From a virus (Duplodnaviria; Heunggongvirae; Uroviricota; Caudoviricetes), in IMG/VR virus record IMGVR_UViG_2563366918_000005: a DNA stretch of 42,002 bases. The stretch is one strand, 5' to 3'. A model generated the notes under the pieces. It searched no databases. It was not told the origin of the DNA and saw nothing but the letters and a program-made list of their open reading frames with translations. Both the position numbers and the translations under genes were made by a program. This document shows, in pieces, positions 6,683-36,433 of this stretch. Positions within the stretch are counted from its first letter, which is position 1, and every line of letters starts with the position of its first letter.

Positions 6683-6699
6683 ATTACCTTTATGGTAAT
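6683..6699. promoter_or_regulatory. 17-bp palindromic operator ATTACCTTTATGGTAAT (perfect)
   Basis: Member of the WTTACC-N5-GGTAAW family. Lies in the divergent region between tailspike (-) and the SOS-boxed gene (+). Half-site ATTACC also at 6633. Confidence 0.7.
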
Positions 6700-7079: not shown

Positions 7080-7172
7080 TTTACATCGCACTCCTCTTGT
7101 GCCATAGTAATCGGGCACTGGCAAAATCCAGTGCCGGGATTGGTCTCCCGGATTACTACAGAGGCACATATG

Positions 7173-7192
7173 CCGCATAAGCGGTTTTTTTT
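7173..7192 (+). terminator. probable rho-independent terminator (short stem, U8 tail)
   Basis: CCGC-ataa-GCGG followed by TTTTTTTT (7185-7192). The stem is only 4 bp, so strength is uncertain. Confidence 0.45.
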
Positions 7193-7346
7193 ATGTGTAA
7201 AGCGCACCTATTCTATGGTGGGCTGTGTGGGGGCACCGAAAGGTGCGCCGGGTTCCTTTGTAGCCGGTAAGACCAACTCTGCACAGTTCACCACCATCTG
7301 ATTGGTCTCAGCGGTGGTGATTAACCTAACTACAAAGGTGATCGCC

Positions 7347-8039
7347 ATGAATACCAAACCTTCCATCTTTTCCTTTGAGTCATCCTGCCAGATCCGTATG
7401 TTCATGATTGACGGAGAACCTTGGTTTGTCACCAAAGATGTGTGCAATGCTTTGAATATTGATGTTACACAAGCGAGAAAACTTGATAAAAAAGGCTGGA
7501 ACAAAAAGGGGCTGTATTCAATACAGACCCCTGGTGGAATACAAGAACTATCCATCGTTTCAGAATCAGGTCTCTACATCCTTATTCTGCGTTGCAAAGA
7601 GGCAATGACTGAGGGAACGAGAGCATTCAGATTTCTTGAATGGGTTACAGGCGAGGTTCTTCCTCAGATCCGCCGCACCGGAAGTTACATTAAAAACTCG
7701 CTACCGCAGGAAGAACGCATAAAGATGGTTGCCGACCAGGTAGCCAACGCCACGGCGTCAGCAGTAATGCAGGCGATGAAGATAGAGAACAAAACCTACA
7801 ACGCCCCGCTGAAGCCCGGCTACCGCAGCCTGATTCATTCCCCGTCTGGTGTTCTCGGCCTGACGGAGAACTCACTGCTGATGAATCTGCTGAACCAGTT
7901 ACAGGAAGACGGGCACGACGTATCGGGCGCGGCGGCGGAGCTGACCACCATGTTCTGCTACATCGTCGGTGTGAGCAAATGCCTGCGTGATATCCAGACG
8001 CACGCGGAGTACATCAACGACAAAGCAGGGTTCTTCTGA
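7347..8039 (+). CDS. Bro-N domain antirepressor-like protein
   Basis: 230 aa from MNTKPSIFSFES (SD AAGGTGA). N-terminal Bro-N signature (IRMFMIDGEPWFVTKDVCNALNI ... ESGLYILILR ... FLEWVTGEVLPQIRRTGSY). C-terminal ~70 aa paralogous to the 6775-7032 product. Confidence 0.8.
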   Translation: MNTKPSIFSFESSCQIRMFMIDGEPWFVTKDVCNALNIDVTQARKLDKKGWNKKGLYSIQTPGGIQELSIVSESGLYILILRCKEAMTEGTRAFRFLEWVTGEVLPQIRRTGSYIKNSLPQEERIKMVADQVANATASAVMQAMKIENKTYNAPLKPGYRSLIHSPSGVLGLTENSLLMNLLNQLQEDGHDVSGAAAELTTMFCYIVGVSKCLRDIQTHAEYINDKAGFF

Positions 8040-22654: not shown

Positions 22655-23350
22655 TTATTTGCCATAGAGCACTTCGGCCGCACTACGCTGGCCTTCATTA
22701 CCACCGGTGACCATGCCATCTTCAGACATCGCCTTTCCGATTTTCACGAACGTTTTGACCAGATCAGGGTGATTACCCAGCCCGGTGGTGTTCAGATATT
22801 CTTTGAGCTCAGGTGTCCCGAACTGGTCAAGCGCACGCTGTGCGGCGCTAAGGTTAGAAATCAACTTGTCGCCACCGATTTCTTTGTCAGCTTTTACATC
22901 CGCAGCCCACTGCTCGGTTGTTTTCTGCCAGGCTTCTGCCTGGCGCTGCTGAACACCTGCCAGAATCTTCGGATAAGCATCAACCAGCTTTTGCGCTTGC
23001 TCGTTGGTCAGGTTAAGTTCTCGCGCCACAGGCTCGAATTCCTTCAACGCTTCTGTATCCAGCTCTACGCCTTCGGCAGCCTGAAACTCGTACTTCTCAG
23101 GCGCACCCTCTGGTTTATTGCCGTCCTTTTTTTCATCCTGCTTATCGTTTTCAGGCTTTTTGTCATCAGCAGGTTTATCGCCATCAGCAACAGGTTGTGG
23201 CTTATCACCTTCCTGTTGTGATGGATCACCAACTGGAGCAGGGTTATCACCTGCAGGCGCTGACGGTTCTGACGCAGCCGGAGCTGCTCCACCATCGACT
23301 GGTTGCTCATTGCAAAGACGGCGATACAGCAAACGCTCAAATAAATTCAT
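22655..23350 (-). CDS. scaffolding protein
   Basis: 231 aa from MNLFERLL (AGGAG 5 nt upstream). Acidic Pro/Asp/Lys-rich low-complexity N-half, helical C-half. Lies between portal and capsid genes. Confidence 0.7.
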   Translation of the reverse strand: MNLFERLLYRRLCNEQPVDGGAAPAASEPSAPAGDNPAPVGDPSQQEGDKPQPVADGDKPADDKKPENDKQDEKKDGNKPEGAPEKYEFQAAEGVELDTEALKEFEPVARELNLTNEQAQKLVDAYPKILAGVQQRQAEAWQKTTEQWAADVKADKEIGGDKLISNLSAAQRALDQFGTPELKEYLNTTGLGNHPDLVKTFVKIGKAMSEDGMVTGGNEGQRSAAEVLYGK

Positions 23351-23352
23351 GA

Positions 23353-23649
23353 TCACTCCTGTTCACTGGCCTCTTTGGCCATCTTCAAATACTGTTCAGG
23401 GCAATGCGCCATAACGCGCTGAAACAGTTCCAGCGCCAGATTGCGTTGCCCCTCATTAAACGCCATTGCCATAGCGTCCATCGGTGAGATAGCGGAAAAC
23501 ACACGGCCTTTCTCCAGCACCGACCAGACAACGCGACGCCCCTGTTCACTGCTCATGACAAAGCGAATGTCATCAATTTCACGCTGCGCCATGTCACGTT
23601 GCTTACGGGCGTTTTCTTCTTTCAGTTGATCGTCTTCGTAATCTGTCAT
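23353..23649 (-). CDS. hypothetical protein between portal and scaffold
   Basis: 98 aa. ATGA coupling to the portal stop. Confidence 0.55.
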   Translation of the reverse strand: MTDYEDDQLKEENARKQRDMAQREIDDIRFVMSSEQGRRVVWSVLEKGRVFSAISPMDAMAMAFNEGQRNLALELFQRVMAHCPEQYLKMAKEASEQE

Positions 23650-25325
23650 TGTGATTGCCCACCCTGACCACTAACTGCATTCGCCATAGCTGACAACACA
23701 CTCGGATCCGAAGTTTTAGCTTCGCTTAGCGTCTTGGCACCCTGTGCCGCAGCCATCCCCATCGCCATCATTTGTTGCTGCTGTTGCTGCTGTGCCCGTT
23801 GCTGGCGAGCCTGCTCAACCTGTTCCTGCGGAACAATGACGGTTGGAGACACTCCAGACATATCAGCGAATGCATCGATTGCCTGATCAACGTTGAGTTT
23901 GTCGAGAGCTTCTGGTTTCGCTTGCGCAAGTTGACCAATGAAGTTGACCGTAGACGCCAGACTGGACAGGCCGATAGACTTCTGCGCCTGAGCCATGACG
24001 GAAATGTATTCGACCTTCAGGGGCATACCTTCCATCGCGTCAGGCGGGGGCGGCAGCATGTTTTTACGCACCATCATCGAGAAAGAGCGGTCAATGAGAG
24101 GATTAAGACATTCGTCGTTCAGACGCTCCAGAACCGGCCCCAACATCAGAAGTTTTTCTTCTTTCATTTCGATCACCGCTTCAACAGGCATCGAGCGGGT
24201 ATTGATGTTCTGCAACATCATGAACAGATCGACAAAGTAGGCGCTGTTAATGATTTGACGAGTGTCCTGAATGTCTGCCACCAAATCTGCTGTACTGGGG
24301 TTAACCAGATAAGCAGGCCTGAAGCCATCCTGACCAGTAATCTGATCGATATACGTGATGTCGCCAGGAAGAAGGGAGGCGCGCTGATTCTTGAGGGAAG
24401 TCGGAGCAACCATCGGCGGATTGGTGGCTTTATCAATCAACTGCGACTTGCGCTTCTGGAGAAGCTGCAATGCCTTAACAGATCCAAGCGCCAGCATACC
24501 CGGGCATGATGATCCATAAACATCTTCGCCGTTAACTTCCCAGCGCGGAGCCATAATTGGAAACTCATCGAATCCGGACTCACGCAACAACTTGTCGTTA
24601 TCGCCACCAACCTCGTAATAAACCGATTTGAATGGCTTGTTCTTGCTATCCAGCTTCGATGTATCGCGGTCAATGTTCGGGTAAACCGAATGCATCACTT
24701 CAATCCACTTCTCGTAGGTGCCGCTTTCCCACATGCTTTTTACGGATTCGCTGACGTTATTTAGCCCGAACTCCTGAACAAGCTGACGAACAGTCATAGA
24801 GAACTTGCGAAAACAGGTGTCCACACTGCCACGAGGTGAGTTAGCCAGGTAGTAACTGCCTATCGGGAATGGCATTGTGCGAATGATGTCCTCGTCATCC
24901 TCCAGCACTGCCATTGCACCAGTGCTGTATGTGCCGAGGCTTCCGTATAACTGCGGCAGCGACTGATAGAGATTCGACTTATTGAACATATCGTTCATGC
25001 GGTTCTGCACCGCCTCAAGCCACAACTTAACAGGGCCATAATCCATCATTTCAGGATCTGGCGTAGCCAGGCGAAACCACGGACGCGCGGGGCTTGTGAT
25101 GCCTGACATCATGCCGCTGGCGAGAGTGCGCGCCGCCATAGTCCCGGTCGAATCAATAATGCGTGTATTGCGTCGATCGTTACGGTTGACCTCAGAAGTC
25201 AGAAAGCGGGAACCACGTGGGTTGATGTAATCACTCAACTCGCGCCAGTGCGGCTCGAACGACTGACGCTCGCTTTCAAGTTGTGCGAACTGTTTGTTCA
25301 ATCGCTCTTTAGTTGTTTCCGCCAT
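23646..25325 (-). CDS. portal protein (podovirus head-to-tail connector type)
   Basis: 559 aa. Position and size fit. Gln-rich C-terminus (QQRAQQQQQQQMMAMGMAAAQG) is typical of T7-like connectors. Confidence 0.8.
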   Translation of the reverse strand: MAETTKERLNKQFAQLESERQSFEPHWRELSDYINPRGSRFLTSEVNRNDRRNTRIIDSTGTMAARTLASGMMSGITSPARPWFRLATPDPEMMDYGPVKLWLEAVQNRMNDMFNKSNLYQSLPQLYGSLGTYSTGAMAVLEDDEDIIRTMPFPIGSYYLANSPRGSVDTCFRKFSMTVRQLVQEFGLNNVSESVKSMWESGTYEKWIEVMHSVYPNIDRDTSKLDSKNKPFKSVYYEVGGDNDKLLRESGFDEFPIMAPRWEVNGEDVYGSSCPGMLALGSVKALQLLQKRKSQLIDKATNPPMVAPTSLKNQRASLLPGDITYIDQITGQDGFRPAYLVNPSTADLVADIQDTRQIINSAYFVDLFMMLQNINTRSMPVEAVIEMKEEKLLMLGPVLERLNDECLNPLIDRSFSMMVRKNMLPPPPDAMEGMPLKVEYISVMAQAQKSIGLSSLASTVNFIGQLAQAKPEALDKLNVDQAIDAFADMSGVSPTVIVPQEQVEQARQQRAQQQQQQQMMAMGMAAAQGAKTLSEAKTSDPSVLSAMANAVSGQGGQSQ

Positions 25326-25339
25326 TTCAATGACTCCGG

Positions 25340-25546
25340 TTACTGACCAAGCAGCGTTTTACCGCTGGTATTAGCGGTTGATGTGTCGCCCTGAGAACCG
25401 GTAAGCAGCGTAGAACTACGACCAGCAGCAGCGCGACGGCGACGAGTTTCTTCGTCGCGGGCATCAACAACGGCGGCATCCTGCTCCTGTGGTGCTGCCT
25501 GAACTTCTGGTGTTGCAGGCACTGATGGTGAGCTACCCATGCACAT
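25340..25546 (-). CDS. small hypothetical protein upstream of portal
   Basis: 68 aa. SD GGAG with the same 12-nt initiation region (CGGAGTCATTGA) as the portal gene. Confidence 0.45.
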   Translation of the reverse strand: MCMGSSPSVPATPEVQAAPQEQDAAVVDARDEETRRRRAAAGRSSTLLTGSQGDTSTANTSGKTLLGQ

Positions 25547-25614
25547 ATCAATGACTCCGTACGCAATTAAATTATTACCAATTTAACCACATATGATTTA
25601 TTTATCGTAGATAG

Positions 25615-25652
25615 TTGACATTTAACGCACAAATTATTACCTTTCAGGTAAG
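25615..25652 (+). promoter_or_regulatory. candidate sigma70 promoter TTGACA-17-TACCTT overlapped by operator ATTACCTTTCAGGTAAG (25636-25652)
   Basis: Perfect -35 at 25615-25620. The -10 keeps only T1, A2 and T6. The operator covers -10/+1. Points towards the tRNA and the IS1-split gene. Confidence 0.55.
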
Positions 25653-25973
25653 CAAAGAGTTCATTCCGGTTATTAACCTGACTGGCTTGTCGTTAAATTG
25701 AACAGGTGGAGTGAGCTTTTATTTTGAGCAGTACGGCGTATGGCACATGCGCCGATAGCGGTCTGGATACGTTTAAGGGGCACCCTCCCTTGCTCGGGCA
25801 AACGAACCAGGTAGCCGGAATGTGCAAGTCGAGCGGTTTTATTCCGCGCACGGGGATTCACCATCCCGGCGATTCGGTGTGACGCCTCGGAAGAGACGAG
25901 GGTACAACGATGAGAGCATTTATGGAGCCGCGACAAAGTGTGGCGCCTTAACAGGCTAAGTGCTCTCAGCGTT

Positions 25974-26050
25974 GTGGCATTAGCTCAGTTGGACAGAGCA
26001 ACCGCCTTCTAAGCGGTTGGTCGCAGGTTCGAATCCTGCATGCCACGCCA
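25974..26050 (+). tRNA. tRNA-Arg (anticodon UCU, reads AGA)
   Basis: 77 nt. Acceptor GTGGCAT/ATGCCAC, D-arm GCTC/GAGC, anticodon stem ACCGC/GCGGT with loop CTTCTAA (TCT at 26008-26010), T-arm GCAGG-TTCGAAT-CCTGC, discriminator G, encoded CCA. Resembles E. coli argU. Confidence 0.93.
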
Positions 26051-26093
26051 GAATCACGCCTAAGGACCGTGATGCCAGAAGTTCCAGGTGCTT

Positions 26094-26135
26094 GGCGGTG
26101 ATAGTTTCCCTTGAAGGACTATCACCGCCCTTTTT
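26094..26135 (+). terminator. strong rho-independent terminator after the tRNA
   Basis: 12-bp stem GGCGGTGATAGT / ACTATCACCGCC, 12-nt loop, then CTTTTT. Confidence 0.8.
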
Positions 26136-26213
26136 ACAGCAGGACGCCATTGCGATGACTTCATGCTGTAAACCCGTGCAGCCACGGAAGGCATAACTCA
26201 TTGCTTCCAGTTC

Positions 26214-26237
26214 GCCCGGTTCGCCGGGCATTTTTTT
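26214..26237 (+). terminator. second rho-independent terminator
   Basis: GCCCGG-ttcg-CCGGGC-A-TTTTTTT. Confidence 0.7.
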
Positions 26238-26252
26238 GCTTGATGACCGCAA

Positions 26253-26269
26253 ATTACCTTAAAGGTATA
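26253..26269. promoter_or_regulatory. operator-like site ATTACCTTAAAGGTATA overlapping a TATAAT hexamer (26266-26271)
   Basis: Left half perfect, right half GGTATA. -35-like ATGACC at 26243-26248, 17-nt spacer. Confidence 0.5.
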
Positions 26270-26551
26270 ATCATGAAAAACTTCAAGGTAATTAGCATGT
26301 TTGAATCGTTCAAAGAGCTGTTTTTATCTACTGCCAATACTGCCGTGAATCGAGCCAAAAACCCTGTGCTTGGTGCTTTTGTTATGTCCTGGTGCGCCTT
26401 CAACTGGAAATCAATTCTTTATCTATTTTTTAGCAAATCAAACATAATAGATAAAATTTCATATATCTCAGATAACAGCACATGGAAAACTGTTATGTTT
26501 TATCCATGCTTATCTGTAATTGCTATCTGCTGCCTAGGTAATGACTCCAAC

Positions 26552-27055
26552 TTACTGATAGTGTTTTATGTTCAGATAATGCCCGATGACCTTGTCATGC
26601 AGCTCCACCGATTTTGAGAACGACAGTGACTTCCGTCCCAGCCTTGCCAGATGTTGTCTCAGATTCAGGTTATGCCGCTCAATTCGCTGAGTGTAACGCT
26701 TGCTGATTACGTGCAGCTTTCCCTTCAGGCGGGATTCATACAGCGGCCAGCCATCCGTCATCCATACCACGACCTCAAAGGCCGACAGCAGGCTTAGAAG
26801 ACGCTCCAGTGTGGCCAGAGTGCGTTCACCGAATACGTGCGCAACAACCGTCTTCCGGAGCCTGTCATACGCGTAAAACAGCCAGCGCTGGCGCGATTTA
26901 GCCCCGACGTATCCCCACTGTTCGTCCATTTCCGCGCAGACGATGACGTCACTGCCCGGCTGTATGCGCGAGGTTACCGACTGCGGCCTGAGTTTTTTAA
27001 ATGGCGGAAAATCGTGTTGAGGCCAACGCCCATAATGCGGGCGGTTGCCCGGCAT
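26552..27055 (-). CDS. insB: IS1 InsB reading frame (expressed as InsAB-prime by -1 frameshift)
   Basis: 167-aa ORF with ...[21 protein letters not shown]...[11 protein letters not shown]..., recognised as IS1 InsB. Confidence 0.93.
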
Positions 27056-27249
27056 CCAACGCCATTCATGGCCATATCAATGATTTTCTGGTGCGTACCG
27101 GGTTGAGAAGCGGTGTAAGTGAACTGCAGTTGCCATGTTTTACGGCAGTGAGAGCAGAGATAGCGCTGATGTCCGGCGGTGCTTTTGCCGTTACGCACCA
27201 CCCCGTCAGTAGCTGAACAGGAGGGACAGCTGATAGAAACAGAAGCCAC
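26974..27249 (-). CDS. insA: IS1 InsA
   Basis: 91 aa [43 protein letters not shown]..., recognised as IS1 InsA. Confidence 0.95.
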
Positions 27250-27864
27250 TGGAGCACCTCAAAAACACCATCATACACTAAATCAGTAAGTTGGCAGCAT
27301 CACCTGCTGCCTATTACCATGGGTAAACAATATCATTAACGTATGGCAAGCAAAGCCTCTTGATAATAATGACTCAATCGAAAATCACCTGAAGGCAAGA
27401 AAAATCCAGCGTGAAACAAGACTGCAGAGGTTATTGGCTAAAAAAGATGTTACATACGACAAAGTTAAGACTGGCGCGGAAAAAGACATCCAAGAGATGA
27501 AAGAAGAGATTATTCGATCAAAGAATAGTATGGGGGAATTGACTGCCGAGTTGAAAGCTAAAGATGACGAATTGAGATCCGCCAGTGCTCAGTTAGCAGC
27601 TCTAAATCATTCATTAAAAGAGATATCGGAAACTCTTGGAAGAATGAATGAGGCATATAAGACCCTCCAAAATGATTTCGACGAATACAAACTCAAATAC
27701 CCTGAAAAATCTCAAATAAAAAGCCTTGAACTTGGCAACGGCCAAACAATTAGCAACTTTTTGGAGCAACACAACTTATCCGGATTAAAATCTGGTAAGC
27801 CAAACGTTTTTAATAACTTTGGTGTTCTATCTGGATTATCAGGTTTCGAGGATAAAAATAAAGA

Positions 27865-29340
27865 CTAAGCATATGGATCGTACTCGGTAAGCGCCTTGCC
27901 TTGCTGGTTCTGCTGCCCGGGAAGTCGCAGGCGCTTTGACACCGGGAAAGCAAACGTCAGCAGTAGCGCATCGCCTTTACCAGGCGAACGCCCAAGTCGT
28001 TCTTTGATATCTTCCTTCGGTTCGATAACGATTTTACCGTCCACGCGAACTTTGTACTCTGCCGCCGACAGATCGTCCGCTGTTTCCTGGTCATCCAGCA
28101 TCCCGCCCAACCTCAGCCATGTCTTGCATGAGTTGAACATCTCCCCGCGCTTGTTGAGCATCTGAGGGTCAGTTGACGCACCACCGAACGGAACAAGTTG
28201 CCATGTGCGCCCCCAGCCGTCACCGATTGACTTCAGACCGGTTCCGTAACCGAAGTCGATGAACACCGCGTCAGCCTGATACTGGTCTTCAAAGTCAGCG
28301 ATACGCTTCGCCATAATCAGATCGTCAGTGGTCTTGTTGCCAGTCCATAGCACCTTACTATGCAACCCCTGCCGCAGGTATATCACCGCGTCATCAACGC
28401 CTGAATATGCCGGGTCAACACCGATTATCACCGGAGCATGTGCCACCTGCGCAGCGGTTACCACCCGTTTCATTGCCTCATCAGTAAGACCGGTAGGGAT
28501 AAACTGCAATTCAGATGCATCAGGGAATATGCCGCGCACACGGATTTTAACGAAGTCGCTGTCTTCCCCGTAGTCATCAACCCATTTCTGCAACTGCTGT
28601 TTGTTAGTACCTTCCACCGTCCGGCTGTCAATCTGCGCAGTTTTCCAGCGGTGTTTGTATTTGCGGAAACATTCGCGAAAACGCCCGGTATTACGTGTAG
28701 GGTTTCCGAACGCCACCCAGATAATCTCAGTGTCTTCGTCCGTAAGCGCACCCTCAGCAACTTCCCACACCAGATCCGCAATGTTCGACGCTTCATCGAA
28801 TACCACGATGATGCGTTTGCGCTCGTTGTGTAGTCCGGCGAATGCCTCAGTGTTGTGCTCAGACCAGGGGATTGCGTCAGCTCGCCACCGCTTGTCGTGC
28901 CCAGGATCATTGCTGTACATCGCGGTAGCGGTACAGGTAAACCAGTCTTTCGTGATAGCAAGGTTCGACCACTTGATAATTTCCGGCCAGGTCTTCGTTC
29001 GTAGCTGGTTGTCGGTGTTGGCGGTCACCACGACCTTACAATCCTCGCAAGTGGACATGCCCCAGTTGATCAGCATTGAGATGAATGCGGATTTACCAAT
29101 ACCGTGACCAGAAGCACGTGCCAGCATAAGCGGCTGATAACGCGTCTCTGGATTCTGCAGGTGATCACGTATCTCTCGGAACGCATCGGCCTGCCACTGA
29201 CGTGGGCCGGTAGCATGTGCCAGTTCAGTCCCCTCTTCCCCCCACGGGAACGCATAGAGGGCATAGCCAAGCGGATCGTGAGTGAACCCTGCAATATCCT
29301 CGATTAACTGCTCTTCAGGAGATAACGCTGTATCTGTCAC
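27865..29340 (-). CDS. terminase large subunit
   Basis: 491 aa, GTG start. Walker A SGHGIGKS. Acidic motif IIVVFDEAS. Follows the small-subunit gene with a 4-nt overlap. Confidence 0.88.
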   Translation of the reverse strand: MTDTALSPEEQLIEDIAGFTHDPLGYALYAFPWGEEGTELAHATGPRQWQADAFREIRDHLQNPETRYQPLMLARASGHGIGKSAFISMLINWGMSTCEDCKVVVTANTDNQLRTKTWPEIIKWSNLAITKDWFTCTATAMYSNDPGHDKRWRADAIPWSEHNTEAFAGLHNERKRIIVVFDEASNIADLVWEVAEGALTDEDTEIIWVAFGNPTRNTGRFRECFRKYKHRWKTAQIDSRTVEGTNKQQLQKWVDDYGEDSDFVKIRVRGIFPDASELQFIPTGLTDEAMKRVVTAAQVAHAPVIIGVDPAYSGVDDAVIYLRQGLHSKVLWTGNKTTDDLIMAKRIADFEDQYQADAVFIDFGYGTGLKSIGDGWGRTWQLVPFGGASTDPQMLNKRGEMFNSCKTWLRLGGMLDDQETADDLSAAEYKVRVDGKIVIEPKEDIKERLGRSPGKGDALLLTFAFPVSKRLRLPGQQNQQGKALTEYDPYA

Positions 29341-29933
29341 TGATTACCATCCTGACGTTCTTTGAGTCGCTTCCTGGCTGCTGCTATGCGATCAGCAATT
29401 GTCACATTCACATTAACATCCAGACGTTCTTTGAACGCGTTGACATCAACATGCTTACCAATCAGCTCAAGGTTCTTCACCTTGTCAGGCCATTTAATTT
29501 TTTTGAGGATTGTCTCTATCGAATCCTCGTTCATGTTCATGATGGTCGATGACAAATCAAAGCCACTAAGCGTAGTGCGCCAGATTTTCGGCCACTCACG
29601 GATTGGTTTAAGGCTCCCATCGTCGTTGAGGATGTCGATCACGTCCATCTGGTCGATCTGCACCAGGCGCATGAGAACGTAATCAGCACTGACGCGCATT
29701 CGTTTGTTGCGCTCCTCCATCAACTCGGCAATCCGTTTTTGAATGCGTTCATCGCGCATCATGACACTGGCTTTAACTGCCGCTGTATTTGGGGAGAATC
29801 CTGCGTTAATCGCTGCCTGAGTCTGGTTTTCAGGCGTTTTGATGTATGACTGGCAATAAGCCTCCTGCATTGCTGTTAGTGGCTTAAATTGCGTTGATTT
29901 GCGTTTATAGGTTTTAGGTTCAGCAGGCATCAT
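29337..29933 (-). CDS. terminase small subunit
   Basis: 198 aa from MMPAEPKTYKRKSTQFKPLTAMQEAYCQSYIKTPENQTQAAINAGFS (HTH-like N-terminus typical of the Terminase_2 family). The longer TTG start at 30011 would run through the operators and terminator and is rejected. Confidence 0.8.
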   Translation of the reverse strand: MMPAEPKTYKRKSTQFKPLTAMQEAYCQSYIKTPENQTQAAINAGFSPNTAAVKASVMMRDERIQKRIAELMEERNKRMRVSADYVLMRLVQIDQMDVIDILNDDGSLKPIREWPKIWRTTLSGFDLSSTIMNMNEDSIETILKKIKWPDKVKNLELIGKHVDVNAFKERLDVNVNVTIADRIAAARKRLKERQDGNQ

Positions 29934-29966
29934 AACCACCGTGGTAATAGTTACCGTTGTGGTAAT
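29932..29966. promoter_or_regulatory. two abutting operators ATAACCACCGTGGTAAT (29932-29948) and GTTACCGTTGTGGTAAT (29950-29966) over the terS start
   Basis: Same 17-bp family, 1-bp gap. The first overlaps the terS ATG ATG. Confidence 0.65.
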
Positions 29967-29976
29967 AGTACCATGC

Positions 29977-30002
29977 AAAATAAAGCCGCCATAGTTGGCG
30001 GC
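29977..30002 (-). terminator. rho-independent terminator between early-left genes and terS
   Basis: On the - strand: GCCGCC-aactat-GGCGGC followed by TTTATTTT. Confidence 0.7.
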
Positions 30003-30051
30003 AGTATTCAAAACCCATCAAATTCATCATGCATAATCTACTCGTGACATG

Positions 30052-30390
30052 TCACACTATTAATTTCGTTTCATGCCAGCCTTTAGTCACCCAGCATTGC
30101 GAGTCACCATTACACGGGCATGAATTAACTGGAACTCTCTCGCCGCACTTACCGCAACATTTTCTGCTGATCGATTTTATACGCCCGCGCACGCGTGCAT
30201 CATCCTGGCGGATCAGTAACGCTATATACTCACCAAATTCGTAAGGCGCACGCCCGGGGCGACGCGTGGCACAGTTACGCTCCAGCATTTCAATTTCCTG
30301 AGCATCAAGCACAATTTCCAGCTTACGCACACCAGATGCAGCTTGTCTGGCTCTCTGAGCGGCTTTGCGCTCTGCTGCTGATTTAGCCAT
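30052..30390 (-). CDS. hypothetical protein with basic helical N-terminus and Cys-rich C-terminus (candidate regulator)
   Basis: 112 aa. N-terminus MAKSAAERKAAQRARQAASG. C-terminal CCGKCGERVPVNSCPCNGDSQC. Last early-left gene before the late terminator. Confidence 0.55.
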   Translation of the reverse strand: MAKSAAERKAAQRARQAASGVRKLEIVLDAQEIEMLERNCATRRPGRAPYEFGEYIALLIRQDDARVRGRIKSISRKCCGKCGERVPVNSCPCNGDSQCWVTKGWHETKLIV

Positions 30391-30736
30391 TCTGATTTTC
30401 CTGCATCATGAGGAAGACAATCATGGCGGCGCGGAGAACATTTTCATGCTCATGCTCCCAAATATGGTTGGCAGAAGCACCGTGCAAACCGCTTTCGTTC
30501 CAGTCCCAGAGAATGTTAACTCCGTTATCAGCAATAATCGGCCATGAGGCGCTCGGATCATTGCAGTAGTCAGGTAAAGGGTTTAATGGCTCGAAAGTTG
30601 TATCAGCATTTCCGTAATACCATTTGTTGGTGTTATTCCCTGACGTTTCCGGTTTACATGCCCAAAGGCCTTTAAAAATTATGTCTCCTACCATTCTGTT
30701 AATTTCAAAATCACTTAACTGTGAATAGTCCATCAT
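30383..30736 (-). CDS. NinX-like (DUF2591-type) phage protein
   Basis: 117 aa. N-terminus MMDYSQLSDFEINRMV recalls the NinX/DUF2591 family (memory). Confidence 0.55.
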   Translation of the reverse strand: MMDYSQLSDFEINRMVGDIIFKGLWACKPETSGNNTNKWYYGNADTTFEPLNPLPDYCNDPSASWPIIADNGVNILWDWNESGLHGASANHIWEHEHENVLRAAMIVFLMMQENQNG

Positions 30737-31437
30737 TTCGCCACCTTCGGAGGTTCTGGTAGCGGCATCCAGTGGGTTACACCGCCAATTGGCTCATCGT
30801 CGTCGTACTCCAATGCGGCTATATAGAACCCGTCACGACGAGAATAAGAAATCCCTGACATTACAATGCCATCCGAAACAACAATAATGTCACCCGTTTC
30901 TTCCGGCATTCTCTCACTACAGCTTATCCAACCATCCGGAGTTACCGGAGAGTTGCCCGACAGCTTGTTCAACTTGTAAGTCTGGCTTACAGGTTTGGCA
31001 CCATGAAGCATGGCGTCGCTCCGCTCTATGCCATCCAGCGCGATTCGCAGTGCCTGAATTGTGGTAATGCTATCGTTTGGGGCTATTCCATATCGCTCGA
31101 ATACAGCGATATGACCGCGCATAATCTCAGGCGTAAGCTCTTTGTAAGCATAAGCAAGCGACCCTGATGCCTCATCCGGCACAACCGACGCAGGCGCGGC
31201 AGCATAAACAGGAATAACGTCCGCTTGCTCTTTATTGCTTTCATCCGTTAAAGCCCAGAATAATTTCCCGGCCGGATGTTTGAAAATATAAGCAACTGGT
31301 TCTGCTTCCAGCGATGCCAGAGCAATTCGTGCCAGTTCTTCCGCTTCTTCTGCTGGCAGTACAACGTTGCTACCAGGTCCGTATGTTTCGCGCCACTGTT
31401 TGATTGTCAGTAGTCGCTCTTTGGTAATAGTGGTCAT
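30733..31437 (-). CDS. hypothetical early protein with DUF551-like C-terminal domain
   Basis: 234 aa. C-terminal WISCSERMPEE...GVTHWMPLPEPP pattern is typical of DUF551 (memory). Confidence 0.5.
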   Translation of the reverse strand: MTTITKERLLTIKQWRETYGPGSNVVLPAEEAEELARIALASLEAEPVAYIFKHPAGKLFWALTDESNKEQADVIPVYAAAPASVVPDEASGSLAYAYKELTPEIMRGHIAVFERYGIAPNDSITTIQALRIALDGIERSDAMLHGAKPVSQTYKLNKLSGNSPVTPDGWISCSERMPEETGDIIVVSDGIVMSGISYSRRDGFYIAALEYDDDEPIGGVTHWMPLPEPPKVAK

Positions 31438-31439
31438 AG

Positions 31440-31631
31440 CTATTTCACCTTAATCTCAACATTTCGCAGCTTTAGCTCTACTGGCAGGTCTGACTTTCCG
31501 GTTAATGCTAATGCGAGATTTTCTGGAGTAATGAGAGCCGTTATTGTTTTCCCCATCGCCAGACGAATAGTCATTCGTATCTCGCGATCGTCACATGCTC
31601 CCGGTCGAACAATTGAGATTTGTCCGTTCAT
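31440..31631 (-). CDS. small hypothetical protein
   Basis: 63 aa from MNGQISIVRPG (AAGGAGAG SD; start 1 nt after the upstream TGA). The longer start at 31664 is rejected. Confidence 0.5.
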   Translation of the reverse strand: MNGQISIVRPGACDDREIRMTIRLAMGKTITALITPENLALALTGKSDLPVELKLRNVEIKVK

Positions 31632-31632
31632 A

Positions 31633-32118
31633 TCACTCTCCTTTGATGCGAATGCCTGTTGCAATGCTGTTTATGATGCTGTCAGTGCATGGGGTAGAAA
31701 GCTGGGCATCTCCAACAATTTTCATGACCTCAACATCTGCATATCGAATACCGAGGTGTATCAGACCGGCTATGCCTGACTTAAGCCGAGCATTTTCCAT
31801 AAATAGAACTTTTGCCCGCTGTTTTTCTGCTTCAAGCTCAACGCGCAGCTTCCCTACCGTTAGCGCAATTTCCTCGTTCTCCTGGTCGCGGCGTTTGATG
31901 TATTGCTGGTTTCTTTCCCGTTCATCCAGTAGTGCCAGCACGGTTTCTGGTCCGGCCAGAAATTTGAAGGCGTTGAGCGCATCAATATCCACACCGTAAT
32001 CTTTAAGTTCCTGTTCGCTTATCAGATCATCATCAACTGGCAACATTAACAGGCGTTCCATTGCCGGAATTGCACGTTCTGCCGCCTCACGCAGTGCCTG
32101 ATAGTTAATTTTGGTCAT
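31633..32118 (-). CDS. Ead/Ea22-like early protein
   Basis: 161 aa. MTKINYQALREAAERA ... PETVLALLDERE pattern and coiled coil are typical of the Ead/Ea22 family (memory). Confidence 0.5.
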   Translation of the reverse strand: MTKINYQALREAAERAIPAMERLLMLPVDDDLISEQELKDYGVDIDALNAFKFLAGPETVLALLDERERNQQYIKRRDQENEEIALTVGKLRVELEAEKQRAKVLFMENARLKSGIAGLIHLGIRYADVEVMKIVGDAQLSTPCTDSIINSIATGIRIKGE

Positions 32119-32119
32119 A

Positions 32120-32419
32120 TCACATCACCCTGAAGCCGTTGCATTTACGTAAAAAATCGCAGATATAGCCCTTCATTTTTTTATGCCAATCTCGATCATT
32201 CCCATTGCACCAACCATCAGGTGGAGTCCAGTTTTCTATCAGAGCAGCCATTTTCTTTGCTTTCGCCGGAGTAGCTGTTGCGGTATCGCAGTAATGACGA
32301 GTGTCAACCAACGCATCCATACCATCGATATCAAGTACGCAAAACCATGTGTGATTCGGAATTCCTACAGGTGGTATTTGTTGCCCACGTCGGCGTTTAT
32401 CAATGAGATATACACTCAC
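32120..32419 (-). CDS. hypothetical early protein
   Basis: 99-aa ORF, tightly packed in the operon. Confidence 0.5.
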   Translation of the reverse strand: MSVYLIDKRRRGQQIPPVGIPNHTWFCVLDIDGMDALVDTRHYCDTATATPAKAKKMAALIENWTPPDGWCNGNDRDWHKKMKGYICDFLRKCNGFRVM

Positions 32420-33000
32420 TGGTTGCCTCCTTTGCGAAGCTGGGCAGCAAAGTCACGGATAGTGTCATCAAGGTCTGGGCACAACAGATGGTCAGCAAAC
32501 ATCTCTACCCCCTGCGCACGTACTTCAGCCAGAAAAGTGTCGGTGGCTGGGGTTTCGATATTAGGTAGAAGCGCATAATCGCAAATCGTATCGATCGCAG
32601 GATCACAACAGTCATCCTCGTTGCGTGGTCGTTCGCCAACCTTCGTTGACGATTGCATGATGATTCCCCAGCAAATACTATCGACCTCTTCGCTCCATCC
32701 ATCGCAAGCATCACCGCGATAGTCGTCGATTGCAGCCTCAGCCGATTCGATAGCTTCCTCAGCAGTTTTGTGCCATTCGAAATTATGCTCAGAGCCATAT
32801 GAGAAATATGAATGTCCCGCCTTCAGCCCCGCATTCTCCGCTGCCATCGCATTAGCACGCACCAGTTGCACTTCCAGTTGCGTTGCCAAATCGCTGATCA
32901 GCTTTGCCACACTACGCATATCAACGGCACCACATTCTGCTTTCAGTTCCGAAGCCATCTCATGCCCGGCGGCAACTAACCCTTTGATATTACTTTCCAT
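32416..33000 (-). CDS. hypothetical early protein (Ea22-like N-terminus)
   Basis: 194 aa, acidic, Cys/Asp-rich centre. ATGA coupling downstream. Confidence 0.5.
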   Translation of the reverse strand: MESNIKGLVAAGHEMASELKAECGAVDMRSVAKLISDLATQLEVQLVRANAMAAENAGLKAGHSYFSYGSEHNFEWHKTAEEAIESAEAAIDDYRGDACDGWSEEVDSICWGIIMQSSTKVGERPRNEDDCCDPAIDTICDYALLPNIETPATDTFLAEVRAQGVEMFADHLLCPDLDDTIRDFAAQLRKGGNQ

Positions 33001-33061
33001 CTTTACCCTCGCTTATCCACATAACTTATTGATTACATTGATAACTAAAAAGATCGTCGAT

Positions 33062-33406
33062 TCAGAACTCTTCGATGTTCCAGCCACCACCTGCTTTCTT
33101 TGGTTTAACCGTTACCCCGATGATTCGGAACGGATACTGATCTGCGGCGACTTTGGTTTTCACCCTGGCGTCGTCGGTCCAGAAACCTTTCACTTCGTGC
33201 AGTTCCATCTCGCCGGTGGCGAGCATCACAGCAAAATCGGGCGTATAGAACGTGTTGTCAGCTAACCGCAGCTTGATACCCTCAAATCGATACCAGACGA
33301 TTTCTCCTGCACGTTTACGCAGCTCAAGGTGCTGGCAATACGCAGATTCTGTTTTGTTCATCTGTCCTGTTTTGAGTCGACCAAGAGCCTGTATCTGTTT
33401 TCTCAT
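33062..33406 (-). CDS. DUF1064-like protein, probable PD-(D/E)xK nuclease
   Basis: 114 aa. YTPDF ... ELHEVKG fits a PD...ExK motif. Confidence 0.55.
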   Translation of the reverse strand: MRKQIQALGRLKTGQMNKTESAYCQHLELRKRAGEIVWYRFEGIKLRLADNTFYTPDFAVMLATGEMELHEVKGFWTDDARVKTKVAADQYPFRIIGVTVKPKKAGGGWNIEEF

Positions 33407-33408
33407 GA

Positions 33409-33487
33409 TTTACCCCTGAGGTAATTAAAAACCACATAAGACACGAAATCAATAGATTTTAGAATATTTTATTACCTAACAGGTAAT
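33409..33487. promoter_or_regulatory. two operators TTTACCCCTGAGGTAAT (33409-33425) and ATTACCTAACAGGTAAT (33471-33487)
   Basis: Same family, 62 bp centre-to-centre. The first abuts the DUF1064-like start codon. Confidence 0.65.
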
Positions 33488-33498
33488 TATCGAAACGT

Positions 33499-33518
33499 AA
33501 AAAAATGCGCTATCGCGC
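33499..33518 (-). terminator. short GC hairpin plus T7 after the P-like gene
   Basis: On the - strand: GCGC-gata-GCGC-A-TTTTTTT. The stem is only 4 bp. Confidence 0.45.
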
Positions 33519-33523
33519 TGGTA

Positions 33524-34309
33524 TTACTTGATAAATCCTGCCGCCTTTCCTCGCCTGTATTCCTCCATCAGCCACTGCGCCGGTGTTATTCCCCCAAGGG
33601 TGGCGGCGTTAGGCATGCACCCGAAACTTCGCCCTGGTGGATGGTAAACGTCTCTCCCTGTGTCCGGAGGCGTACTCATGGGTTCTGGCTTTGCCTGTAT
33701 GCTGATCACCGGATCGGGTATCTGCTGTCCGGAAGCCACCTTTTTCGCCCAATCATCGAGCAGCCTGCGCGCGTGTTTCTCAACCTCTATCTCGCTAAGC
33801 TGGCGCTGATACATTGCACGGCGGGTATCACATACGACCCAGTACATAACCGGATGCCGCCACGGGAATCTTTCGGGACCACCAGGATATAAACTTTTTT
33901 CCTTGCTGTACCGGTGAAACTCCGTCATCACATCGTCAATGGTGACGCCAAGAACCATCTTGCTGTCTTTGCACCACTTGATGAATTGCCCTGGCGACGG
34001 CCAGAACGGAGAATCACTGGCGCGGGCGTGGCGCATACCAGCAGAAACCTGTTCACGGGTTCGGATCCCCCCTTCGGCAAACGCAGCAATCCACTGCTGT
34101 TTTGCAGCAACTTCCTGCTCTGGCGTCTTCAGGTTGGTTACCACTGCCGCCGGAAACAGTTGTTTCAACTGTTTGAAAAGGGCATCAACAAGCCTCTCTG
34201 CTGACATGTTCACTACGTTGTCATTGTTGACGTACTGATGCTCATAACCTGACATGCGAGAAAGGGCTTCTCCGTCACGGTTTTGTATTGCGGTAAAAAC
34301 GTTGTTCAC
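33524..34309 (-). CDS. lambda P-like replication (helicase-loader) protein
   Basis: 261 aa from GTG 34309. SD GGGAGGA 6 nt upstream; GTGA overlap with the O-like stop. Aligns by eye with lambda P (…WIAAFAEGGIRTREQVSAGMRHARASDSPFWPSPGQFIKWC versus lambda …WVLAFRENGITTMEQVNAGMRVARRQNRPFLPSPGQFVAWC). ATG 34324 is the alternative start. Confidence 0.85.
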   Translation of the reverse strand: MNNVFTAIQNRDGEALSRMSGYEHQYVNNDNVVNMSAERLVDALFKQLKQLFPAAVVTNLKTPEQEVAAKQQWIAAFAEGGIRTREQVSAGMRHARASDSPFWPSPGQFIKWCKDSKMVLGVTIDDVMTEFHRYSKEKSLYPGGPERFPWRHPVMYWVVCDTRRAMYQRQLSEIEVEKHARRLLDDWAKKVASGQQIPDPVISIQAKPEPMSTPPDTGRDVYHPPGRSFGCMPNAATLGGITPAQWLMEEYRRGKAAGFIK

Positions 34310-35848: not shown

Positions 35849-36433
35849 ATGAAAAGTATCCAGGACGTCCGCAGGCAAAATCTCAACGACTTGATCGACC
35901 GTGAATTCAATGGTGTTCAGACGCGGATGGCAGAAAAACTTGGAACTCAGGCAAATCTGGTAAACCGCTGGGCTCTTGGCAAGAAGGTTATCGGCGACCA
36001 GGTTGCACGAAAAATTGAAGCTGCCGCCAATAAACCCCGTAACTGGCTTGATATTGATCGCTCGCTTTCTCAGGAGGGTTTTCAGCCTGTCGGCCCGAGC
36101 GATATAGGTCAGCTGGCGGCTCACAACCTGGAACGCTGGATGAGCGAAAGCCGCGACCTTTCAACGCAGGGAAAACTACACCGCGCATCCGGCGTCGCCC
36201 AGGTGACAATCAGCCGCCTGTTAAACAATGAGGTCAGCGTTTCCATTTCCACCCTGGAGAATGTTGCATCCGCATTCGGGCGTCACGGCTATGAATTACT
36301 GATTCACCCGCACGACCCTGCGACCATCAACTATGATCGCTCGCGCTACGCATTGTTACCCGAAACCGAGAAAGCAAAGATCGAAAGTTACATTGAATTT
36401 GTCATCAACCAGAACGAAAAAAACAAACAATAA
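35849..36433 (+). CDS. prophage repressor with two tandem HTH (XRE-type) domains and no S24 peptidase domain
   Basis: 194 aa. HTH 1 is TRMAEKLGTQANLVNRWALG. HTH 2 is KLHRASGVAQVTISRLLNN. Only ~35 aa follow the second HTH. No SD before the ATG (possibly leaderless). Confidence 0.75.
   Translation: MKSIQDVRRQNLNDLIDREFNGVQTRMAEKLGTQANLVNRWALGKKVIGDQVARKIEAAANKPRNWLDIDRSLSQEGFQPVGPSDIGQLAAHNLERWMSESRDLSTQGKLHRASGVAQVTISRLLNNEVSVSISTLENVASAFGRHGYELLIHPHDPATINYDRSRYALLPETEKAKIESYIEFVINQNEKNKQ

Follow-up and report, generated by a model that had tools for sequence, protein, structure and literature searches.

In epsilon15 and phiV10 a small unit lies between terL and gp3 on the strand opposite to these genes. 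It includes a TTGACA promoter with a TTACC-N5-GGTAA site, a terminator (t2 below) and an accessory gene, and the epsilon15 record marks gp50 there, along with a terminator and sites for a repressor and RNase III. We analysed the corresponding region of IMG/VR record IMGVR_UViG_2563366918_000005, an epsilon15/phiV10-like (genus Uetakevirus) prophage of E. coli; the whole stretch of 42,002 nucleotides is referred to as the window. Its segment 25547-27868 agrees with these phages in position and orientation, in the promoter with its repressor site, in t2 and in having an opposite-strand accessory gene after it, and is very probably a genus-wide early accessory module of Uetakevirus prophages, not a foreign island peculiar to this prophage. 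Such a module is ordinary for the genus, which corrects an earlier, sequence-only reading of the segment as an insertion. The new part is its leader, which is an undescribed, intricately folded RNA family without an Rfam match or a conserved open reading frame (ORF). This unannotated complex RNA, called RNA-X here, is present in about one third of complete E. coli genomes, in Stx- and Cdt-converting phages and in P1.

RNA-X is not annotated in the epsilon15 and phiV10 records. Unlike the window, epsilon15 is devoid of most of RNA-X, of the tRNA that follows it and of half of the first terminator (t1). The accessory slot differs too: in phiV10 and epsilon15 it is occupied by a Phage_gp49_66 gene without its own promoter, while the window has a PHROG-4780 cassette with an operator-overlapped promoter, split by IS1.

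Several other described systems are comparable. The put RNAs of HK022 act in cis to allow read-through of terminators, and this depends on the zinc-binding domain of the RNA polymerase beta-prime subunit. The ban operon of P1 (Pban, dicF-like region, trnA, trnT, tciABC, trnI, ban) is also repressor-controlled and early, and combines tRNAs, a DicF-like element and RNA-X. However, its RNA-X is located 2.3 kb from the promoter, after a tRNA and not before one, and has a different 3' domain. The large, ornate prophage RNAs ROOL and GOLLD and the stable RNAs C and D of the T4 tRNA cluster are phage-borne structured non-coding RNAs of unassigned function which are co-located or co-transcribed with tRNAs. 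RNA-X has no Rfam match to ROOL or GOLLD and is much smaller; it is found in Enterobacterales and a Stenotrophomonas phage, and most of its copies do not have a tRNA neighbour.

Layout, conservation and operators of the terL-gp3 module

The packaging and head genes flanking the module are encoded by the minus strand and include terL (27865-29340), a 68-aa epsilon15 gp3-like gene (25340-25546; PHROG 831, E=2.4e-36) annotated in all relatives, and the portal gene (23646-25325). The module is oriented against them, as the sequence-only reading had it. That reading placed the opposite-strand unit at the junction of terL and the portal gene; the unit is present, but it adjoins the gp3-like gene and the portal gene comes only after that. 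Its premise that terL is normally followed directly by the portal gene did not hold, as all 14 Uetakevirus-like phage records matching both flanks have an intervening opposite-strand segment.

In the module the promoter is followed by a leader of about 85 nt, RNA-X (about 240 nt), tRNA-Arg(UCU), two intrinsic terminators and the cargo slot. The relatives have a backbone of promoter/operator, leader, two terminators and, in most cases, tRNA-Arg(UCU), with a cargo slot that varies and abuts the terL stop. Annotated relatives with the common layout are phiV10, TL-2011b, phiv142-3, epsilon15, SPN1S, Tyrion and a Klebsiella prophage; the order shared by the backbones is gp3 upstream region, TTGACA, operator, leader, tRNA-Arg (where present), trailer hairpin (between the tRNA and t1), t1, conserved spacer and t2. 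At 95% identity or higher the backbone was found in 472 E. coli records, and the cargo of the window in only 37 genomes.

A recent insertion of a foreign cargo island into the packaging/head operon of this prophage would agree with the GC content of the cargo (0.37-0.40 against about 0.53 in the flanks), with the variability of the cargo gene among relatives and with the presence of IS1. Nevertheless, we regard it as highly improbable. Hundreds of E. coli prophages have the backbone at this very site, 95-100% identical, and it is recognisable in Salmonella, Klebsiella and Enterobacter relatives, only the last gene being exchangeable. Moreover, members of the same cargo family, 56-74% identical, are located in the same slot of other prophages of Salmonella and E. 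coli. The synteny comparison proposed with the insertion reading therefore largely goes against it: since relatives carry the same layout at the site, the backbone is core and common to them, and the variable part is limited to the last gene.

Every feature listed in the sequence-only reading was found at the position it gave. The predicted module promoter (25615-25643, plus strand) includes a -35 box TTGACA (25615-25620), a 17-bp spacer and a -10 box TACCTT (25638-25643), so that transcription would start near 25650. As had been noticed, an operator overlaps this promoter: the -10 box lies inside O1, a perfect 15-bp palindrome TTACCTTTCAGGTAA (25637-25651) which also covers the presumed start site. 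The arrangement TTGACA-N16/17-TTACCT is found in epsilon15, SPN1S, Tyrion, the Klebsiella prophage and a Salmonella prophage (L136) as well.

Sites of the form TTACC-N5-GGTAA (one mismatch allowed) occur 15 times in the window against 0.73 expected, a number reached in none of the 100 shuffles. They bracket the gene of a 194-aa regulator with two helix-turn-helix domains (35849-36433) and also the ant/C4 module. In the epsilon15 record the equivalent operator site is labelled 'repressor, lysogeny'. The repressor of ZX5 was experimentally shown to be the lysogeny repressor, and its sequence was reported to be identical to that of phiV10 (PMC9782041). The 194-aa protein of the window is equated with the phiV10/ZX5 repressor by its domain description and the phiV10-like genome only. 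The enrichment of operator sites, together with the site over the module promoter, supports the earlier suggestion that the unit is under phage-operator control.

A second predicted promoter, ATGACC-17-TATAAT (26243-26271, plus strand), belongs to the cargo cassette and is overlapped by an operator-like palindrome TTACCTTAAAGGTAT (26254-26268) with one mismatch to the operator consensus. This second operator/TATAAT unit had been pointed out before. In Salmonella (L136) and E. coli (L139, L140) prophages the homologous cargo genes have RTGACC-17-TAKAAT together with TTACCTTAAAGGTAK in front of them, and because of these matching units we consider it a conserved part of the cassette.

The cassette resembles classic phage morons in that a gene of deviant GC content, here with its own promoter, is located between otherwise syntenic genes. 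On this likeness, and given the mismatch in the second palindrome, the module could be viewed as a lysogenic-conversion (moron) unit expressed in the lysogen, with palindromes non-functional at both promoters. Unlike morons, the cassette has no terminator of its own, since its stop codon TAA (27866-27868) overlaps that of terL (27865-27867); the two units are convergent with zero spacer, just as described earlier. Its promoter also carries the prophage operator, which points to early lytic expression rather than to expression in the lysogen. As O1 is a perfect palindrome over the -10 box conserved in all relatives, the second palindrome is conserved along with the cassette, and RNA-X is located behind repressor-controlled promoters in lambdoid phages and P1 too, we find the moron explanation unlikely.

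Structure and distribution of RNA-X

Six helices make up RNA-X (25734-25973, plus strand), along with a pseudoknot supported by covariation and a 17-mer that hardly varies. Helix P1 (25734-25739/25749-25754) is followed by P2 (25758-25765/25808-25815), which closes a variable hairpin, and by the 17-mer (25811-25827). P3 (25831-25849) is variable. The loop of P4 (25853-25856/25864-25867) pairs with a downstream GGUG to form the pseudoknot (25859-25862/25876-25879), where C-G to A-U changes are seen. P5 (25885-25889/25897-25901) has the loop GAAGAGA, and the long helix P6 (about 25903-25922/25957-25976) encloses an insert of 30-117 nt across copies.

Covariation was assessed in an alignment of 24 diverse RNA-X copies. 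In the helices 98.8% of the cells are paired and 11 pairs have compensatory changes, compared with 26-45% pairing in slid controls; covariation is extensive in P6. The fold of the leader has a z-score of -3.0. The covariance model matches RNA-X of the window with 165.7 bits, and scores of 130-180 bits were obtained in every locus type. Independent retrieval of copies via a 5' anchor has found the exact 17-mer in 20 out of 21. A further long-range pairing, GCACAU/AUGUGC, is 100% compatible, although broken in one copy (L143); as both sides are invariant, it cannot be judged by covariation. Reading the 3' strand of P6 (GUGCUCUY) as a boxA/nut-like element was rejected because this strand covaries with its partner and is not conserved, e.g., in L163 and L047.

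Searched against Rfam, whose families include ROOL, GOLLD, EAR, ribozymes and riboswitches, RNA-X (25720-25980) gave no match at E<=10, and in the scan of the whole window no family matched the leader at the gathering threshold. A literature search with conserved sequence strings or keywords returned no paper on RNA-X, nor is it mentioned in the passages on trnI, tciA and ban of a P1 transcriptome preprint.

The long leader had been called non-coding, and a conserved reading frame, looked for across RNA-X copies, was not found. Some records do have ORFs annotated over the leader (mEp460_037, cdtI orf40, phiV10p04), and many copies are free of stop codons in some frame, as would be expected if the conserved sequence were protein-coding or a DNA-level site. 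However, the open frames fall into 15 different strand/frame combinations relative to two conserved anchors, with several frames open simultaneously, the variable hairpins differ in length by non-multiples of three, and substitutions in the helices are compensatory. We therefore rejected a protein-coding leader, and give almost no weight to a coding or DNA-level function in general. The hypothetical proteins which records place over the tRNA or RNA-X (phiV10p04, mEp460_037, cdtI orf40 and Tyrion gp54), in most cases on the other strand, are probably spurious.

Megablast with the module sequence has revealed matches of about 83% identity to unannotated DNA in lambdoid prophages, between a cI-like gene and yfdP, and in P1-like plasmids, between tRNA-Ile and ban. 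A sensitive search has found RNA-X in Uetakeviruses, in SfV/cdtI-like lambdoid phages including Stx2a-, Stx2c- and Cdt-converting ones, in P1, P7, D6 and SJ46, in Klebsiella and Enterobacter phages and in one Stenotrophomonas phage. Of the 5,426 complete E. coli genomes, 1,824 have the RNA-X core; its 2,449 occurrences include 547 on plasmids, and among the matches listed, there is no annotated feature beneath the core. At least 120 IMG/VR contigs contain the 17-mer without a mismatch. The 5'-anchored pattern has located RNA-X in 20 species-representative genomes, all of Enterobacterales, and one of the 21 copies retrieved with this anchor comes from a contig binned as Bacillota.

In 57 of 134 loci a CI/S24 repressor gene directly precedes RNA-X. 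The lambdoid examples inspected have the cI stop, a terminator and OL/PL, with RNA-X starting 2-45 nt past the -10 box. The lambdoid phages where RNA-X directly follows PL appear to be without N: no N gene is annotated near the RNA-X locus of cdtI, mEp460 and WGPS2, or anywhere in the full cdtI record. In P1 (L007, NC_005856) RNA-X is located at 71019-71224, without annotation, between trnI and ban and downstream of Pban/Op72. It is thereby a part of the C1-controlled ban operon, together with tRNAs and the annotated dicF-like region. Being placed behind repressor-controlled promoters in each of the three settings, RNA-X is expected to be an early repressor-controlled transcript in all of them.

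A second copy of RNA-X, comparable to putR, was not found in the window, the lambdoid loci or the whole cdtI genome. One IMG/VR contig (L031) contains two copies (3973-4157 and 4780-4962) on the same strand, 0.8 kb apart. Comparison of epsilon15 (L010, 2542-2634) with SPN1S (L014) shows a deletion in the former, which reaches from RNA-X, of which the 3' two thirds are missing, through the tRNA and into t1, leaving it without its left arm; the deletion junction lies in a TTCCCTTGATGCT repeat common to the P2a loop of RNA-X and the t1 loop.

Expression of the module and possible roles of RNA-X

The tRNA-Arg(UCU) reported earlier was confirmed on the plus strand at 25974-26050 by ARAGORN and Rfam (tRNA, 73.3 bits). 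Its start coincides with the end of the 3' strand of P6. The codon AGA is used 15 times per 1000 in the cargo gene and 5.6 times in the phage genes sampled. The loop GAAGAGA of P5 (25885-25901) contains AGA codons complementary to the UCU anticodon of this adjoining tRNA, and the 3' AGA is kept in most variants of the loop; a contact between loop and tRNA is conceivable.

Both terminators of the sequence-only reading are present on the plus strand. In t1 (26094-26136; hairpin 26094-26129) a 14-bp stem is followed by a U-run. The region 26140-26237 includes the conserved spacer, a hairpin and t2, whose hairpin (26214-26229) is GCCCGG-TTCG-CCGGGC with T7 after it. Conservation of t1 extends to the relatives and the lambdoid copies, where a hairpin of this type separates RNA-X from the first PL gene, and the t2 region is conserved across E. 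coli, Salmonella, Klebsiella and Enterobacter relatives. The t1 region (26083-26130) has a sub-threshold likeness to DicF only (16.9 bits against a gathering score of 48), and the t2 region (26178-26237) shares CAUUGCUUCCAGU and the terminator with RyhB at 18.6 bits, also below the threshold.

The t1 loop CCUUGAAG (26109-26116) is perfectly complementary to CUUCAAGG (26281-26288) at the Shine-Dalgarno region of the probable cargo start, and UUCCCUUGA is found both in the P2a loops of RNA-X and in the loops of t1. Both this complementarity and the likeness of the loops are post hoc observations and may be due to chance.

At least one strong terminator is located within 520 nt downstream of RNA-X in 92 out of 119 loci, compared with 25 on the opposite strand and 12 upstream. 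A distance of 12-17 nt separates the T-run of t2 from the start of the slot gene in phiV10, epsilon15, SPN1S, Tyrion and the Klebsiella prophage, and this interval holds a Shine-Dalgarno sequence only. Such promoterless genes should therefore be expressible only by read-through.

We propose that in the lysogen the repressor keeps both plus-strand promoters off, and that the module is transcribed early, once infection or induction has set in. RNase P, by cutting where the tRNA begins, would detach RNA-X from it. Most transcripts would end at t1 or t2, and the promoterless slot genes of relatives would be expressed from those reading through. RNA-X itself would be a mobile RNA gene common to lambdoid phages without N, as the first part of the PL transcript, and to P1, as a part of the ban operon.

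For the function of RNA-X, we tentatively suggest a cis-acting, protein-independent antiterminator or anti-Rho leader which lets the early transcript pass the terminators downstream. The suggestion is made by analogy with HK022 putL/putR, where an RNA also directly follows the repressor-controlled early promoter of a phage without N and is in turn followed by terminators and the operon genes (PMC9378689). Inspection of HK022 has confirmed the order PL, structured RNA, terminator and first gene (nun). A put-like antiterminator is favoured because the repressor-controlled promoter, RNA-X, the terminators and the lack of N in the lambdoid phages match the PL-putL-terminator-nun order. Homology to put was rejected: the covariance model with filters off scored at most 3.4 bits over HK022 23000-34000, including PL-putL-nun, blastn produced no match between the two RNAs, and inspection of the locus led to the same conclusion. 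The put RNAs consist of about 70 nt in two stems and are present in two copies per phage, while RNA-X has 180-250 nt, six helices and a pseudoknot, in one copy. If the suggestion is correct, RNA-X would add a class of RNA-only antiterminator to that of the put RNAs, distinct from it in structure; otherwise it may be an early RNA effector.

Several points weigh against an antiterminator. That the promoters are active, that the repressor binds, and that processing and read-through take place is deduced here. Epsilon15 is viable and keeps its slot gene though two thirds of RNA-X and the tRNA are lost; that deletion took the left arm of t1 as well, which qualifies the point. Each phage has one copy of RNA-X and none on the PR side, unlike putL/putR, and the copy in P1 does not have a strong terminator within 520 nt downstream. 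The cargo of the window does not need read-through, as it has its own promoter. Finally, the fold and the near-invariant segment of 17-22 nt exceed the needs of known antiterminator RNAs, and would suit a ligand- or protein-binding RNA equally well.

The alternative is an early trans-acting RNA, processed free of its transcript and serving as a decoy or sponge for a conserved component of the host or its defence, be it a protein, tRNA or small signalling molecule. We consider it about equally likely with the cis antiterminator, and as tentative. Such an RNA would belong to an early counter-defence or host-takeover cassette. The pseudoknotted multi-helix fold with near-invariant junctions and freely varying peripheral hairpins is typical of RNAs binding ligands or proteins. 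RNA-X is also modular, moves among unrelated phages with different downstream genes, would be first transcribed after repressor loss and could obtain defined ends from the tRNA boundaries. Its neighbours are of an accessory or counter-defence kind, such as phage tRNAs, the DicF-like hairpin and a Tad2-like gene in the slot of a Klebsiella relative. What a trans-acting role leaves unexplained is the constant placement of RNA-X at operon heads upstream of terminators. A narrower version, rather unlikely as specified, is a stand-alone aptamer or decoy RNA that neutralises a conserved host immune or regulatory component after repressor loss, with a signalling nucleotide, an effector protein and tRNA-Arg(UCU) as candidate targets. 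RNA-X would then be an as yet undescribed kind of counter-defence factor made of RNA.

The position of RNA-X next to tRNA-Arg in the module, about 15 nt after tRNA-Ile in P1-type copies and at the extreme 5' end of PL transcripts could also indicate a processing or stability element, e.g., a self-cleaving ribozyme or a nuclease-resistant structure involved in tRNA maturation or 5'-end protection. We see little chance of this, as 84 out of 134 loci do not have a tRNA within 450 nt, no ribozyme family known to Rfam was matched, and a protective hairpin would need far less complexity and conservation than this fold shows.

Cargo slot, late transcription and other features of the window

Among relatives the cargo slot is 459-1969 nt long and was found with 46 distinct sequences (50 loci) representing at least ten unrelated cargo families. 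Phage_gp49_66, HNH, DUF551 and a Tad2-like anti-Thoeris domain are among them, as are several families without a Pfam match. The Tad2-like protein (PF11195, Thoeris anti-defence) is encoded in the slot of Klebsiella phage ST512-KPC3phi13.3 (L012, 3011-3532). Such contents suggest that the terL-gp3 slot is an early-expressed hotspot for accessory and counter-defence genes.

The cargo gene of the window was described earlier as AT-rich and split by IS1, and this was borne out. Its GC content is 0.37-0.40 against 0.50-0.55 in the flanks. The 5' part (26297-26536, plus strand; PHROG 4780) codes for N-terminal hydrophobic helices and the 3' part (27314-27868, plus strand) for a coiled coil and a tail rich in Gly, Ser and Asn. 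They are separated by a 768-bp IS1 (26537-27304, minus strand) with insA/insB, terminal inverted repeats and a 9-bp target duplication TGCTGCCTA (26528-26536 and 27305-27313). Removal of IS1 and one copy of the duplication restores a single ORF of 272 codons, which is 100% identical to an intact gene in NZ_AP022222. The IS1 junction of the window was found in none of the 5,426 complete E. coli genomes. To judge by the interrupted frame, IS1 has inactivated the cargo gene.

PGAP places the start of the gene at 26273. The true start is probably ATG 26297 (Met9), since the PHROG profile sets in at residue 9 and a length of 264 aa is found for most of the homologues listed. An intact PHROG-4780 protein is on record as WP_102779111.1. 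With its N-terminal hydrophobic helices and long coiled coil the protein is predicted to be membrane-anchored. It has no match to a Pfam or NCBIfam family, and PADLOC gave only weak coiled-coil matches (E>=1e-4). The AlphaFold model (pLDDT 63, pTM 0.25) is too poor for a fold search.

The sequence-only reading had also raised the question of how late transcription from terL reaches the portal gene. Scans for a minus-strand sigma-70 promoter in front of gp3 returned no good candidate, and a weak TTGTGC-17-TACGAT with the -10 box at 25604-25609 was read by eye. There is no strong minus-strand terminator in the module. The segment upstream of gp3 is nearly identical across E. coli, Salmonella, Klebsiella and Enterobacter relatives, and contains a perfect palindrome TTAAATT-N6-AATTTAA (25567-25586). 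This palindrome has no other match in the window, is shared by epsilon15, SPN1S, Tyrion and the Klebsiella prophage, and might serve for late control or as an IHF-type site. Since all relatives share the arrangement, either antisense traversal of the module or an activator-dependent promoter within the highly conserved 25550-25610 should be the norm for the genus. In this prophage IS1 could add polarity.

Elsewhere in the window, an isrK-like RNA and a C4 antisense RNA (Rfam; 7115-7298) are located directly upstream of the Ant antirepressor gene (7302-8039), with operators at 6684 and 7064. By its gene and RNA content, the region 7115-8039 appears as a P1/P7-style c4-ant immunity module in an epsilon15-like prophage. 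Two adjoining operator-like palindromes (29933-29965) lie within the 5' end of the terS coding sequence, where it codes for a TTVTITTVV repeat; they may be either functional or a by-product of this repeat. The Hfq-binding small RNA STnc490 is encoded on the minus strand at 1687-1810 (Rfam, 146 bits).

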